Of a stretch of 64,000 nt of DNA, positions 33,001-36,000 are shown in pieces. The position numbers are program-made. The stretch is from an uncultured Methanoregulaceae archaeon (GTDB lineage Archaea > Halobacteriota > Methanomicrobia > Methanomicrobiales > Methanospirillaceae). The stretch is taken from contig OY969564.1 in assembly GCA_963701095.1 (NCBI GenBank), positions 64,001 through 128,000 of the forward strand, in the 5' to 3' direction. Position 1 is the stretch's first letter, and every line of letters starts with the position of its first letter.

Positions 33001-36000
33001 ATATACACTTTTATTTTTATACCCGTTTGGGTAATAAATGATCATTGTGTCTTCCAATACTAAAAAGATACGAAGTGTTCCGCTCTATCTCTCGCTGCTC
33101 GAAAAAGCCGGGCGCTCGCAACAAACTATCAGAACCTACCGGGAAGCATTGCTCTATTTTTCCCGGTTCCTGGACGTGCCGCTTGAAGAGCTGCACAAGC
33201 ACCTGAGCGTTGAGAACCTCCTCGCTTATACCGATAGCGCGGCCCTGAAAGATGCCAGCCAGAACACTCGTCGCATGTGGTTAGCGATCATCCACAAGTA
33301 CATGAAACTGAATGGCGTGGAGTTCGACGAGCTGGAGACTTCCGTATTCAAACTCCGGCGTGACGATGTCAGGCGTGACAAGCCGCTGAAGATTGAGACC
33401 TTGCAGAAAATGATGGATCTTGCGGATGTGCATATGAAAGCATACCTGTCATTCCTCATCTCGACGGGTTGCCGGATTAATGAATCAGCGGAAATTCTGA
33501 TTACGGATATACAAGGCAATAGGGTTACGATACGCCCGGAGATCGCCAAAGGACGACATGGTGGCACAACATTCCTGACATCGGAAGCCCGGGAATACCT
33601 CGACCTGTGGCTGCGTGAGCGGGACCAGTGGATTCAACAGGCAAATGTGCGGACGAATAATATCGGATTGCGCAGACCTCAGGGTGACCAACGGCTCTTT
33701 GCCTGCACATCAAATAATCTCTCGAAACGGTTTCAGAAACTGTATGAGACTGTCGACGGCGAGAGCAGCCCTATTAAGGGCGGAACTCGCAACAAGATCA
33801 CCCCTCACTCGTGTCGCGCATATTTCCGGACACATGCCGTCACCAGCATGGGGATTGACCTGGTTGAAGGTATCATGCGGCATACCGGGTATCTGAATGC
33901 CGCGTATGTCCGCATGTCAGACGATGAACGCGAGAGGTTGTTTCATCTCGGAGAACATGAATTGTACATCACGAGGGCAAGCATACGCAATGAGGAACGG
34001 AAGATCGAGGAGATCAGAAGGGAGCAGGAAGAGAAAATATTGACCCTGGAACGACGGACTAAAATACTGGAAGCCTTACTGAAAATCGATGACTCAAAAA
34101 AGAAATGATTTGCCCTTAGTTTCATTTTTTGAAACTTTTGGTATTTTTTTTATATCATGTAAAGCGTTTTAGATATACCGCCTTGATTCTGAATAGATGT
34201 TAATTCACAGGGTTAAACAACAGATTCAGAGGGCGTTTTGGATCTGTTACCTTTCATACCGCACGTTTATGCATATAGAATCGGTGATACTGCACGCGCA
34301 AGACTAGGTGAGGCCAATTAATCCGACCATCGACGAACAACTTAATGATACCAATAAAAATTACAGTACGGGATTTGACGAGGATTTTCGACAGATTATC
34401 ATCAATATTATCAAGAGCGAAGAGTTTTCAGAATTTCTAAAAAAGGAAATTATCGAGATTGCTGAGAGATAATTTCTCTCATTAAACGCTCCAGTTCTCT
34501 TTTTACAGCCGGGTTACTCTTCATAAATGTAAGGATGGTTTCCTGCATACTACCTTCAAACTCTTTCCGGTTTTTATAATACTGTAACGCGGTATTCACC
34601 AAGTCACTAACTGACTCAAAAGGAGGTTTATTTCCATCTTTTGAATCTGTCTGATCCTGAACCCATTTGTCAAGATCGTTATTTATCTTGAATGACACCT
34701 GCCGTTTTACCATAATCTTCTCGCCTCAATCTTAGTGATAATGGTACTACCATATACGTTATTTAATAGTATCACCATTTTTCCACCTTTTCGGCATGCT
34801 TATATTGTTCAATTTCGTAAGTAGATCCACCCACCATAGAGGTGTGAATGTAAAATGAGTAAACGAGCAACAATTGAACTCGGAGACAACAATGAACGCA
34901 TCGTTGACACGCTTATCGAAAAAGGCATTTATAAAACCAAAATTGAGGCGATTCGTGCTGCAGTACGTGAACATGGCATAAAGTACGGAGTTTTGGCATG
35001 ATCGAATCACTCGATTATCCGGCAGCGATGACCCCGGAAGATGTAAGATACTTCCGTGAACTCGGGCTCGGGCATAAAATAGACATTGGTCTGAAGATTG
35101 GTGCCCTGGAACTGATTAATGAGCAACAATATGGTGACCGGCATGCAAGCAAAAACAGGTTATAACGGCGCCCCGACCCCACAGCCTGCAAGCATCGCGG
35201 GAGAGGGAAGCGCCGGTATAGTATCAGAACACGATCAGAAATATGTGCGCTCAACCTGCATCAGGTGCTGGCAGAAAGTCGTTATTGCATGGAAAAAGGG
35301 CGATTACCTGAAAGACAAGAAATGCCCCCTCTGTGGCGGCCGTCTTTTGGGTAAGGTGCCGGTCAAAAAGGGAGATCCTGATTACCCTGTTCTCGATGCA
35401 GACGCGACCCGGGCTACTGCGTTTCATTGTACAGCAGTCACAGGGACAAATCCGTTCGAGTTCGTGAGTTCTGCGCATGAACTGGTGGGACCATGACCGA
35501 TCCCCGCATCATTGATTCACCTCTCGGTCCGGTGATCCCGGTAATCGATATCGCCAAACAGGTGGGATGCAGCCGCACTACCATCTCACATTCCATGCAA
35601 AGGCATCCAGCCCTTTTCAAGGATGTGACTTCAATTCAATGGCTGGAAACCCCTAGTGGCAGGCAGAAACATACCTGTATTGCAAAATCGGCAGTAGAGG
35701 ATCTTATCTCTCACCTACGGCCGATTAACCGTGACAACCTGCCGGAACGCATCGACACGTTCCGGGCGGCACAGATCAGGAAAAATAGTGCAGGAGCACC
35801 GGCCCTGTCTGATATTCTCGCCGAATATGCCCGGCAGGCAAGCGTGCTCGCAAAAGATTGGGATGTAAATCCGGCAGTTGCACAGAAAGTATCCATGGCA
35901 ACGGCCGTGGAAAGATATCCGGATCTGATGCCGTACCGGGCGCTTGTCGGAGGAAACGCTTCAGAAGAGGCACCAGTATCCCTTGCATTAACACCGGGCT

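Follow-up and report, generated by a model that had tools for sequence, protein, structure and literature searches.

The palindrome AGTTTCA-TTTTT-TGAAACT, which occupies positions 34118..34136 of the + strand of the window (that is, of the whole 64,000-nucleotide stretch of archaeal DNA analyzed here) and which consists of two 7-bp arms separated by a T5 spacer, is predicted to be a site for a regulator of the MreA/TrmB family. The best overall explanation, held here with moderate confidence on the basis of conserved sequence patterns and gene neighborhoods, is that it is a promoter palindrome bound by an MreA-type regulator--for which a tandem double-MreA protein (termed here dMreA) is the best candidate--and that it is common to the host and to three integrated elements.

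A re-search of the 2.63-Mb genome (G000; 2,625,686 bases) yields eight exact copies of this 19-mer (AGTTTCATTTTTTGAAACT), 13 copies with at most one mismatch and 15 with at most two. The eight exact copies are those given by the genome-wide survey's note, all positions matching: on the + strand at contig positions 56955, 57726, 98118, 716357 and 2070458, and on the - strand at 787898, 907315 and 2497605; as that note also reported, the pattern read backwards has no match in G000. In 100 shuffles of the window, matches with three or fewer mismatches averaged 0.03, versus the two found. One of these two is the exact copy at 34118-34136, located 10 nt past the stop codon of an integrase gene; the other, on the - strand at 9826..9844, carries one mismatch (AGTTTCATTTTTTGAAAGT) and sits between divergent genes, 43 nt ahead of a 48-codon ORF, after which comes a gene for a signal-peptide protein. 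Although the count of eight is right, just six of the copies are independent: those at 56955 and 57726 head paralogous promoters whose similarity runs only from the motif onwards, and those at 98118 and 2070458 lie within homologous DNA (elements 1 and 3). Likewise, the description of the motif as the only 7+7 inverted repeat with at least three copies applies to intergenic DNA only; the whole genome contains others, including the core of a CRISPR repeat (60 copies) and ATCTGGGCGTCACCCAGAT (4 copies).

Among 108 genomes of the genus, the exact 19-mer occurs only in G000 (eight copies) and G057 (six copies), so that its reported restriction to two genomes stands; in a sample of 101 genomes of the family, allowing up to one mismatch, matches occur only in these two and in G075, which has a single copy with one mismatch. 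Two wider searches returned matches that were set aside. Six IMG/VR viral contigs contain the exact 19-mer, but these are unrelated (29-44% G+C) and without tblastx similarity to G000, and the matches were taken as chance; in the genome_contigs collection, where matching stretches number an estimated ~250 (118 retrieved, 80 of them listed), most are from Aquimarina (Flavobacteriia), in which the 19-mer belongs to a separate multi-copy element that is not informative on the archaeal system. Across the eight perfect copies in G000, spacer and arms show equal conservation. Such 19/19 identity, spacer included, is tighter than that of most transcription-factor sites and is due in part to copying (56955/57726 and 98118/2070458). 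No variant inside 34118-34136 occurs among the matches listed for related metagenome contigs that span the motif.

The motif has a characteristic layout: the 7-5-7 palindrome is followed by a short flank (often nTGG) and by a TATA-like box ~10-12 nt past the palindrome's end, so that the palindrome is centered ~20-22 bp ahead of that box, immediately past where a BRE would be expected. This was quantified for 21 sites (15 from G000 and 6 from G057) by seeking a match to TTTATATA 5-17 nt downstream, where 'downstream' is set by the orientation of the T-spacer. A match at 6 or more of the 8 positions is found downstream of 12 of the 21 sites (the box starting 8-15 nt past the motif), on the mirrored side of 5, and at 5.3% of random genome positions; for a match at 7 or more positions the corresponding values are 8, 1 and 0.5%. 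Nine of the 21 sites are without a good TATA match; site 907315 has its better match on the mirrored side, and one G057 site (in contig C66) is at the 3' end of a gene, in the antisense direction. At none of the 21 sites was the motif seen downstream of a TATA box--that is, in the position of a repressor site. By the ORF calls made here, a co-directional ORF follows within 43-365 nt at 11 of the 13 G000 sites with at most one mismatch, and the genes that follow host sites encode PKD/Kelch, DUF3821, S-layer-like and other signal-peptide proteins, as well as response regulators. The sites at 56955 and 57726 flank the gene for the 124-aa MreA-family protein g00068 and belong to its own promoter and to the next one. 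Matches to sigma-70-type promoters were disregarded as irrelevant for an archaeon.

Selective constraint upon the motif is suggested by comparisons between genomes. For three sites that are orthologous between G000 and G057, identity is 19/19 within the motif, against 63%, 61% and 51% in the flanks. Two further genomes, G161 and G170, have the same arms around the spacers TTATT, CTTTT, CCATT and CTATT, followed by 9-10 nt and then (T/C)TTATATAT; one site in each (147927 in contig C2 of G161, and 93254 in contig C1 of G170) is at the response-regulator locus whose G000 ortholog is at 531722, a sign that the motif has older roots. Attempts to footprint the response-regulator promoter in genomes other than G057 came to nothing, as in other species synteny breaks and the intergenic region is not alignable. 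The motif is an inverted repeat of the type of the Thermococcales glycolytic motif (TGM), with arms of 6-7 bp and a spacer of 5 nt (here AGTTTCA-N5-TGAAACT), and, as in operators of the TrmB family, its position relative to the BRE/TATA is fixed, in this case on the upstream side. The survey's view that this is a promoter-associated, operator-type site and not a mere hairpin is borne out by the fixed one-sided distance to the TATA box, by host sites between divergent genes (see below) and by the invariance of orthologous sites. That the 19-mer is a transcription-factor site within a promoter is, on these patterns, quite likely.

Archaeal RNA polymerase terminates at oligo-T, however, and the copies within the elements might mainly be a transcript-end signal for the integrase gene (or, in element 2, for a leftward operon), identity with the host motif being secondary or the site combining an insulator with an activator site. 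The motif is indeed 10, 48 and -2 nt from the integrase stop codons of elements 1, 2 and 3 (in element 3 the stop codon overlaps the motif), and in all three the strand with the T-rich spacer is co-directional with the gene ending upstream, which is the integrase gene except in element 2, where it is a 111-aa gene. For the RNA of 34100-34160 the folding energy is -12.3 kcal/mol (z -3.3; 2 of 200 shuffles were as stable), with a weak hairpin having six T in its loop and then runs of T3-T4 and T8; by the oligo-T measure (at least five T soon after a stop codon), 34118-34152 qualifies through a T6 in the motif that starts 16 nt past the integrase stop. Six host sites, too, are reached by an upstream gene, at 113-302 nt past its stop. 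Yet five of the 13 G000 sites with at most one mismatch, all of them host sites, sit between divergent genes, where no transcript arrives and where there is consequently nothing to terminate; nor does termination explain the 19/19 conservation of the arms, inasmuch as the T8 run alone would suffice. Moreover, three right-hand contexts that are unrelated to one another keep the same spacing between motif and TATA-like box, which a terminator alone does not predict, and a generic terminator scan, which demands three G-C pairs, reports nothing at the motif. Termination as the main role of the element copies is, on balance, unlikely.

Promoter function of the element copies has to be viewed in the context of the elements themselves. 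The left limit of element 1 is marked by a 316-aa host gene (32030..32980, - strand; a branched-chain aminotransferase likeness was noted by eye), inasmuch as this gene ends 57 bp before the start of the integrase gene; its N-terminus is nearly identical to that of the first ORF of a metagenome contig, L244, in which that ORF lies upstream of dMreA. The tyrosine integrase gene (33038..34108, + strand; 356 aa; Pfam Phage_integrase 1.3e-10, phrog_1 1.7e-16) is followed by the motif and by a right flank (34137..34156, + strand) that consists of TTTGGTA and of the TATA-like box TTTTTATATC (~34147-34156). This flank is a predicted rightward core promoter, the box matching TTTATATA at 7 of 8 positions at offset 10, and transcription would start near 34175-34185. 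The first ORF past this promoter (34308..34472, + strand) has 54 codons and a GTG start; it is conserved in element 3, but its coding status is uncertain. A second TATA-like stretch, read from the sequence at ~34274-34281, could give this ORF its own leaderless start. On the opposite strand are an 87-aa gene (34450..34713), which is convergent with both the integrase gene and the motif promoter, is 86% identical in element 3 and could be the source of an element regulator, and an 83-aa ORF (34759..35010), which likewise points leftward; neither has a family match. None of the products encoded next to the motif (54, 83, 87 and 125 aa) gave a usable match in scans against Pfam, NCBIfam and PHROGs, and a scan of 33900-34800 against Rfam, at E up to 1, gave no family. 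The small genes next to the integrase genes, earlier described as divergent from them, are actually convergent, tail to tail; and the notion of a lysogeny-control region is unproven, given these convergent neighbors and the lack of a match between any of them and a known regulator family.

Further to the right, element 1 contains a ParB-like nuclease gene and a 342-aa ATPase/GNAT gene (41957..43602, + strand), which form a core common to all three elements, and a gene for a large terminase subunit (44027..45652, + strand; phrog_2 1.7e-21), which is specific to element 1 and is its sole clear virion or packaging gene. As regards the features of a provirus (an integrase plus virion or packaging genes within defined ends), element 1 has a recognizable terminase in addition to its integrase and ParB-like nuclease (no capsid or portal was recognized in it and no ends were found), whereas elements 2 and 3 share with it only the ParB-like and 342-aa genes, a tblastn search having detected no terminase copy in either. 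DNA relatives of the right-hand module (34137-36300) among the 108 genus genomes are confined to G000's own two copies and one 26-nt match; related DNA turns up in a number of metagenome runs from wetlands and peat. Among contigs of four public runs aligned to 33000-36500, those from RNA libraries cover the integrase gene and the 87-aa gene (one of them over 34573-34714), and none extends over 34170-34520. These contigs, which do not show where transcripts start or end, bear on neither the motif promoter nor termination, the more so as DNA contigs also break, at 34112.

All three elements share one arrangement: the integrase gene is followed by T-AGTTTCA-N5-TGAAACT-(T/A)TTG(G/T)TA and a rightward TATA-like box, the spacer in element 2 being the complementary A5. 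The integrases themselves are either unrelated or 28% identical, that of element 1 lacking BLASTP similarity (E 1e-3) to those of elements 2 and 3. Elements 1 and 3 are homologous from 1 nt ahead of the motif onwards; and a metagenome variant contig keeps the integrase gene and the motif but has unrelated DNA after 34144, with TTTAATAC ~11 nt past the motif. From this arrangement, there is about an even chance that the element copies act as promoters.

The same junctions raise the question of whether the motif is instead a recombination hot spot, or a site of the recombinase core type, where integrase cassettes and right-hand modules would change partners, the host copies being secondary sites or scars. 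Inverted 7-bp arms around a short spacer resemble the core sites of tyrosine recombinases, and sequence similarity begins or ends close to the motif in several comparisons: 1 nt before it between elements 1 and 3, 8 nt past it in the metagenome variant (which shares the integrase gene and the motif), and from it onwards in the promoters at 56955 and 57726. In G057, moreover, a fourth integrase gene is 750 nt from a site. On the other hand, a common core site is not expected of three integrases so dissimilar (unrelated, or at 28% identity); with a length of 5, the spacer falls short of the 6-8 bp overlap regions of tyrosine recombinases; and host sites are conserved at orthologous promoters with no element adjoining them. 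No second copy of the motif, such as an attachment site entails, is found within element 1 or at its far end, and the three elements have no flanking direct repeats of at least 13 nt, nor any of at least 10 nt that involve the 57 bp left of the integrase gene, except for T-rich 10-mers. A short sequence conserved for regulation would, furthermore, itself become a preferred crossover point. A recombination site is thus a very unlikely account of the motif.

Similarly improbable is a mobile promoter cassette that has been spread by duplication and lacks a dedicated regulator, the palindrome and T-tract acting through DNA shape (as an upstream element that is bent or easily opened). Such a cassette would fit two independent pairs in which homology sets in right at the motif, a spacer conserved like the arms in the eight perfect copies, and an orientation rule that is unexpected for the site of a symmetric dimer. 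But most sites share nothing beyond the motif and the TATA-like box, and so are not copies of one cassette; the arms in G161 and G170 are conserved around varying spacers, as is expected for base-specific contacts by a dimer; and the tight association of the motif with MreA-type genes is left unexplained.

It is this association that points toward an MreA-type regulator of the promoter palindrome. MreA-type genes adjoin sites in G000, G057 and G161 and in four metagenome contigs (L244, L245, L246 and L250), which makes the link to the MreA family stronger than the survey's evidence allowed. The gene for dMreA (g00107) is at 31025..31783 (- strand) and is separated from the 316-aa host gene by a tRNA-Glu (TTC) gene (31864..31938, - strand). 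Its 252-aa product matches the NCBIfam MreA model (NF053756, curated cut-off of 100 bits for the whole-protein score) at 170.8 bits in two stretches; the halves alone score 93.7 and 81.5 bits, both below that cut-off, and are 38% identical over 108 aa (E 2e-25). Accordingly, two homologous units of winged-helix DNA-binding type occur within one intact frame, and orthologs are conserved. The structural model of dMreA (pLDDT 81.6, pTM 0.72) comprises two winged-helix units, with a long helix after each (residues 94-121 and 210-236). A Foldseek search with this model returned many winged-helix matches, at TM-scores of 0.2-0.35, the top one being the tandem protein SarS (1p4x, E 2.2e-4); this fold search backs the modeled dMreA architecture only. 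Comparison with NCBIfam Sta1 gave a weak, sub-threshold match (22 bits versus a cut-off of 80).

The distributions of dMreA and of the motif coincide. Among the 108 genus genomes, full-length dMreA occurs only in G000 and G057 (79% identity), and among 5.8 billion proteins it forms just four clusters, all at least 78% identical, with 248-267 aa and end-to-end alignment. All four metagenome contigs that encode dMreA (79-88% identity) contain the motif, exactly in three cases and with one mismatch in the fourth; none of eight contigs with single-domain MreA relatives (41-50% identity) contains it. In L244 the motif is 54 nt past the dMreA stop codon, and in L250 it is 81 nt beyond the end of the dMreA match, a secreted-protein gene being next in both; in G057, L245 and L246 it is ~2.6 kb from dMreA, ahead of a 1140-aa PKD/SBBP protein. 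In G000 the dMreA promoter lacks the motif, the nearest site being the element 1 copy, 2.3 kb away. Because G000, G057 and the four contigs are kin within one shallow clade, this co-distribution amounts to essentially one evolutionary event.

Alternatively, the binder might be g00068, a homodimer of some other single-domain MreA protein, or a protein of the elements, with dMreA a mere bystander. The protein g00068 passes the MreA model (111.7 bits, above the cut-off of 100), and sites in both its own promoter and the next are the classic picture of autoregulation; a broken MreA gene, moreover, follows g00753 (g00754 scores 60.8 bits and looks broken on account of an in-frame TGA). G161 has its arms, at the response-regulator locus, 2.3 kb from a single-domain MreA gene (115.8 bits) and has no dMreA; and since both G161 and G170 have the arms without dMreA, a single-domain MreA could be the binder everywhere. 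Yet g00068, which the survey had proposed, is unlikely to be the (sole) binder: no homolog above 65% identity exists in G057 or in 30 other genus genomes, and at the syntenic place in G057 the gene is missing, the motif being followed directly by the surface-protein gene, and even so six exact sites persist there. MreA paralogs that are conserved across the genus occur in ~100 genomes that lack the 19-mer. As for a protein of the elements, profile scans found no DNA-binding family among their small genes, and G057 keeps its sites without a DNA homolog of the right-hand module. This alternative seems improbable as a whole. The predicted binder of the promoter palindrome may, with moderate confidence, be assigned to the MreA family; that it is dMreA in particular has slightly less than an even chance.

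These considerations may be combined into the following mechanism. A compact archaeal promoter would have the 19-mer, a cis-regulatory palindrome, as its upstream half; an MreA-family protein (i.e., a member of the TrmB family minus the sensor domain) would bind the palindrome and, once bound, would help to recruit TBP/TFB, the outcome presumably being activation rather than repression. As a single-chain pseudo-dimer, dMreA would be the best candidate for this protein; being inherently asymmetric, it could account for the nearly constant orientation of the T-rich spacer toward the transcribed side. Secreted and surface proteins, response regulators and the MreA paralog g00068 would make up the host regulon. 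Within each element, the site at the junction of the integrase module with the rest would head a rightward promoter directed toward the small genes of the opposite strand, so that the host regulator would control a transcript convergent with, or antisense to, these genes, possibly with an effect on the element's life cycle. The most far-reaching version of this proposal--that a narrow lineage evolved dMreA together with a regulon defined by a 19-bp operator, and that the elements placed this operator behind their integrase genes, thereby creating a host-controlled maintenance or induction switch in an archaeal provirus and the first defined MreA-family motif--is speculative and rather doubtful.

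Sensor-less TrmB relatives are common in methanogens; and the motif, candidate binder and small regulon together constitute one testable package. The available portions of two studies (PMC3419521, PMC4158304) report no specific binding motif for an MreA-type regulator. The tandem fusion, in addition, offers a natural experiment, in which an asymmetric single-chain dimer would read a symmetric site and contact the archaeal basal machinery. The occurrence of a host-type promoter head in three elements with unrelated integrases suggests that, in uncultured methanogens of peat and wetlands, mobile elements may tie their expression to a host regulator of surface proteins. Surface proteins are likely receptors, and such a tie, if true, would bear on virus-host dynamics in methane-producing soils.

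Among known systems, that of the TGM is closest in the form of its site: TrmB-family proteins (TrmBL1, Tgr) bind TATCAC-N5-GTGATA, which activates when upstream of the BRE/TATA and represses when downstream, according to the available text of PMC4158304. The TGM is likewise an inverted repeat with a 5-nt spacer and defines a regulon that is present in some species but missing in close relatives (PMC4158304, same portions). Here, in contrast, the arms have another sequence and one more nucleotide each (7 nt against 6), the spacer has a conserved sequence and a set orientation, and all sites are upstream of the TATA box; moreover, the candidate binder is a tandem fusion without a sugar-binding domain, its binding is a prediction, and the regulon consists of surface proteins and response regulators instead of sugar metabolism.

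MreA itself is described in the accessible parts of PMC4158304 and PMC3419521 as a TrmB-family member without a sensor domain. The proteins considered here resemble MreA of Methanosarcina acetivorans (MA3302) in being small sensor-less regulators of the same NCBIfam family with several paralogs per genome, a likeness that runs through the family model only, the proteins here being ~40-65% identical to each other. Within the promoter of Methanosarcina mreA, an inverted repeat is centered 22 bp upstream of the TATA/BRE, according to a figure legend (Fig. S1 of PMC3419521), and this is the geometry seen here. For MreA of Methanosarcina, however, the same two sources, as far as their accessible parts go, found no specific or common motif and discuss both broad DNA binding and chromatin binding like that of TrmBL2 (PMC3419521, PMC4158304), whereas a sharp 19-bp site is predicted here and the presumed targets lie outside methanogenesis.

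As a precedent for a resident element making use of a host activator, Sta1 comes closest, a winged-helix protein that is encoded by the Sulfolobus host and activates promoters of an archaeal virus (PMC1635249, in the portion available). Sta1 was identified by biochemical means with a lytic rudivirus that infects a crenarchaeon; in the present case the link is purely genomic, the elements are integrated in a methanogen, and the exact site also occurs in host promoters. With respect to architecture, dMreA is comparable to SarS and the two-domain SarA family of Staphylococcus, in which one chain with two homologous winged-helix units mimics a dimer, SarS acting as a single-chain dimer; nevertheless, these are bacterial proteins of another family, and SarS superposes poorly on the dMreA model (TM 0.25, rmsd 14.6), the domain packing being different. 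Finally, bacterial prophages carry boxes for host regulators (e.g., LexA boxes in their control regions), so that their switch follows a host signal; for MreA-type proteins we know of no stress signal. As in those prophages, a mobile element here carries what is predicted to be the operator of a global host regulator, but it does so in another domain of life, with another transcription machinery, and at a position that suggests activation instead of repression.

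The 19-mer AGTTTCATTTTTTGAAACT--that is, two 7-nt arms around a T5 spacer--is a lineage-specific, oriented promoter palindrome; judging from sequence comparisons, an MreA-family regulator most likely uses it as its operator. Within the window it occupies positions 34118-34136, starting 10 nt past the stop codon of the 356-aa tyrosine integrase gene (33038-34108, + strand) of element 1, one of three integrated elements that carry this motif (at contig positions 98118, 787898 and 2070458 for elements 1, 2 and 3, respectively). A second in-window copy, with one mismatch, is found at 9826-9844 on the minus strand; shuffled versions of the window yield on average 0.03 matches at up to three mismatches versus 2 observed. 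A search of the whole genome, a single contig of 2,625,686 bases of which the window spans 64001-128000, bore out the eight exact copies that the genome-wide survey's note had located, and raised the count to 13 sites at no more than one mismatch and 15 at no more than two; the pattern written backwards, which served as a control, has no match in this genome. The T5 spacer is identical in all eight perfect-arm copies. Two pairs among the exact copies are non-independent: the promoters headed by sites 56955 and 57726 are similar from the motif to about +95, with unrelated DNA upstream, and the DNA around sites 98118 and 2070458 is 81% identical.

The same note, counting intergenic DNA, had regarded the 19-mer as the sole 7+7 inverted repeat with three or more copies. 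A census of the whole genome for perfect 7+7 repeats (spacer 0-12) places it second with its eight copies, behind a CRISPR repeat core with 60 copies (array at contig 147513-151408). That array, here delimited as 147513-151426, lies outside the window and repeats its core, CGTACCCCGTGCGGGTACG, with a period of 65-68 bp. The census also contains another 7-5-7 palindrome, ATCTGGGCGTCACCCAGAT, in four exact copies (contig positions 383019, 404315, 431613 and 931043). Exact matches to the 19-mer in viral contigs and in Aquimarina (Flavobacteriia) genomes were set aside as unrelated to the archaeal system. The identical sequence is multi-copy in many Aquimarina genomes, several copies per genome (loci L127-L203, among the matches listed), where it presumably represents a bacterial hairpin or operator of unrelated origin, convergent in sequence.

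When sites are oriented so that the spacer reads T-rich, the motif is followed by a gap of about 10-12 nt, often beginning nTGG, and then by a TATA-like box. This was quantified over 21 sites (15 from this genome and 6 from its sister genome, G057) by counting matches to TTTATATA at offsets 5-17: at least six of eight positions match downstream of 12 of the 21 sites, on the mirrored side of 5 and at 5.3% of random genome positions; at least seven of eight match at 8 sites, 1 site and 0.5% of positions, respectively. By our own ORF calls, a co-directional ORF begins 43-365 nt downstream at 11 of the 13 sites with at most one mismatch in this genome, and five sites lie between divergent genes. 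The genes downstream encode g00068, a 124-aa MreA-family protein (NCBIfam MreA, 111.7 bits; cut-off 100), a PKD/Kelch protein, a DUF3821 protein, an S-layer-like protein, further signal-peptide proteins and response regulators. The exceptions to this layout are element 2, site 1654815 (only a very short ORF downstream), site 1120274 (two mismatches, chance-like), site 907315 (a better TATA match on the mirrored side) and a site on contig C66 of G057, where the motif is directed into the 3' end of a gene. At the g00753-type surface-protein gene a separate feature was seen 3' of the motif and its TATA box (contig 716380-716460): a stretch, GTTAAAGAAATGGTCATGAAAT...ATGGGAT...ATTCAATGG, that is far more conserved than its surroundings between this genome and G057 (L021; contig C49, after 9668) and that opens a 73-codon ORF ending at the start of the main gene; the stretch perhaps encodes a leader peptide or acts as a leader RNA.

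In the genomes compared, exact copies of the 19-mer are limited, as had been claimed, to this genome and its closest relative: G057 is the only other carrier among 108 genus genomes, and again the only one in a family sample of 101 genomes. At three sites orthologous between the two, the motif is identical at 19 of 19 positions, and the surrounding non-coding DNA is 63%, 61% and 51% identical. The generic form GTTTCA-N5-TGAAAC occurs 13 times in this genome and 7 times in G057; each of the other 106 genus genomes has 0-2 occurrences, on a par with the backwards control. Two of these, G161 and G170, have two perfect-arm sites each, with spacers TTATT, CTTTT, CCATT or CTATT whose T-rich side faces the gene, as elsewhere; every such site is followed by 9-10 nt, by (T/C)TTATATAT and then by a gene. 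In both genomes one of the two sites is located at the orthologue of the response-regulator locus at contig 531722; G161 also encodes a single-domain MreA (115.8 bits), 2.3 kb away. It follows that the arms and their geometry predate the exact 19-mer. A rival reading, that the palindrome belongs to a portable promoter without a dedicated regulator, leaves unexplained both these conserved arms with varying spacers and the association with MreA genes.

Element 1 extends from the integrase gene to about window position 48750 and includes genes for a ParB-like nuclease, a 342-aa ATPase/GNAT protein and a large terminase (phrog_2, 1.7e-21). In elements 2 and 3 the ParB-like and 342-aa genes recur but the terminase is missing, so that the term provirus, which had been applied to all three, is secure at most for element 1. 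Other genes were noted here: a DUF4238 protein (2.1e-31) is encoded inside element 1 (39142-40353); a 754-aa Ser/Thr kinase with 12 TPR repeats lies on the opposite strand at the element's probable right edge (48888-51152); and past its likely right end, at 53749-57717, a BsoBI-type restriction endonuclease gene (1.5e-110) adjoins a DNA methylase gene, after which comes the gene for a DDE transposase bearing a SWIM zinc finger.

All three elements share the motif at the head of what sequence predicts to be the first promoter behind the integrase gene: past each integrase stop come, in this order, T-AGTTTCA-N5-TGAAACT, (T/A)TTG(G/T)TA and a TATA-like box, all rightward, with the complementary spacer (A5) of element 2 as the sole difference. 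DNA homology between elements 1 and 3 begins 1 nt before the motif, and a wetland/peat metagenome variant has the integrase gene and motif in common and diverges after 34144, its unrelated DNA again presenting TTTAATAC about 11 nt after the motif; among the variants listed from such contigs, none falls inside the motif. The motif thus marks a module junction: it is the piece that stays constant where integrase modules meet right-hand ones, and a promoter-like partner accompanies it in each of three different right-hand settings. Such junction behaviour also fits a recombination site, a reading opposed by the unrelatedness of the integrases (that of element 1 has no BLASTP similarity to those of elements 2 and 3, which are 28% identical to each other), by the failure to find flanking repeats around the elements and by the conservation of the host promoter sites. 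The surroundings of the elements also hold four stretches of 75-81 bp, 84-85% alike, located immediately left of element 2 and about 40 kb to the right of element 3 (contig 782030-786305 and 2109929-2110008); no tRNA was detected by ARAGORN in 780000-789000. In G057 (C12:45970-47992; L082:1970-3993) there is a fourth integrase gene (417 aa, 33% identity to the element 3 integrase), and a motif copy lies 750 nt from it, beyond an intervening gene for a 170-aa signal-peptide protein; the counterpart of this integrase gene here, near 169644-171044, is without the motif.

Behind the integrase gene it is plausible that the palindrome acts as a terminator, or as both insulator and activator site, given that a hairpin (-12.3 kcal/mol, z -3.3) with T runs after it can form in RNA of positions 34100-34160 and that a gene enters the T-rich strand in all three elements; termination by itself explains neither the five divergent host sites nor the fixed TATA partner. 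The first small genes had been described as divergent from the integrase gene; they are in fact encoded on the other strand in convergent orientation to it (87 and 83 aa in elements 1 and 3; 111 and 125 aa in element 2), none matching known families. The interval between the motif and these leftward genes holds a 54-codon ORF that elements 1 and 3 have in common. A transcript started rightward at the predicted motif promoter would run into the leftward genes and, speculatively, control maintenance or induction of the elements.

The proposal of a host MreA-family regulator retains its family as the most likely one, with a different member as the better candidate. The motif occurs in g00068's own promoter and in the next one. 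Neither G057 nor 30 other genus genomes has a g00068 homologue above 65% identity, and at the syntenic place in G057 a surface-protein gene directly follows the motif; since six exact sites are kept under selection in G057 without such a homologue, g00068 is unlikely to be the sole binder. (Another MreA paralogue, right after g00753 at contig 718442-718789 on the minus strand, is interrupted by an in-frame TGA; its score is only 60.8 bits, from the last 63 codons, and the gene is probably decaying. A single-domain paralogue that occurs across the genus is encoded at contig 643971-644336.) A tandem double-MreA protein of 252 aa (window 31025-31783, minus strand) fits better. Its two MreA units (170.8 bits to NCBIfam MreA, in two stretches) are 38% identical to each other (E 2e-25), and an AlphaFold model has two winged-helix units with a long helix after each (pLDDT 81.6, pTM 0.72). 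Full-length matches occur only in this genome and G057 (79% identity) among the 108 genus genomes, the remainder matching one half only; a search of 5.8 billion proteins returned four clusters, all at least 78% identical. A metagenome-contig scan for relatives yielded 12 loci: the motif is present at all four tandem-protein loci (79-88% identity)--as an exact copy in L244, L245 (twice) and L250, with one mismatch in L246--and absent from all eight with 41-50% identical relatives. It lies 54 nt past the double-MreA stop in L244 and 81 nt past the end of the match in L250, ahead of a secreted-protein gene in both; the distance is about 2.6 kb in G057, L245 and L246, where the motif precedes the gene for a homologous 1140-aa PKD/SBBP protein. 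The distribution of double-MreA thus matches that of the motif at every available locus, and guilt by association makes it the best candidate binder; being within one shallow clade, the association amounts to little more than one evolutionary event. Against NCBIfam, the C-terminal unit of the double-MreA also gives weak scores, below threshold, for Lrs14 (24.8 bits) and Sta1 (22 bits), the latter a Sulfolobus host activator of viral promoters (PMC1635249).

MreA is described as a TrmB-family protein without a sensor domain (PMC3419521); dimers of this family are reported to bind TATCAC-N5-GTGATA, activating from sites upstream of BRE/TATA and repressing from downstream ones (PMC4158304). In the present system a gap of about 10-12 nt separates the end of the palindrome from the TATA box, which puts the palindrome's centre about 20-22 bp upstream of that box, and from this position it is predicted to serve as an upstream activator site. 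A single-chain pseudo-dimer, being intrinsically asymmetric, could explain the oriented T-rich spacer between symmetric arms. The Methanosarcina mreA promoter has an inverted repeat with the same geometry, according to a figure legend (Fig. S1, PMC3419521). Both a TrmB-type operator with its regulon and a host-regulator site within mobile elements are of known kinds, and the present system would be a variant of these.
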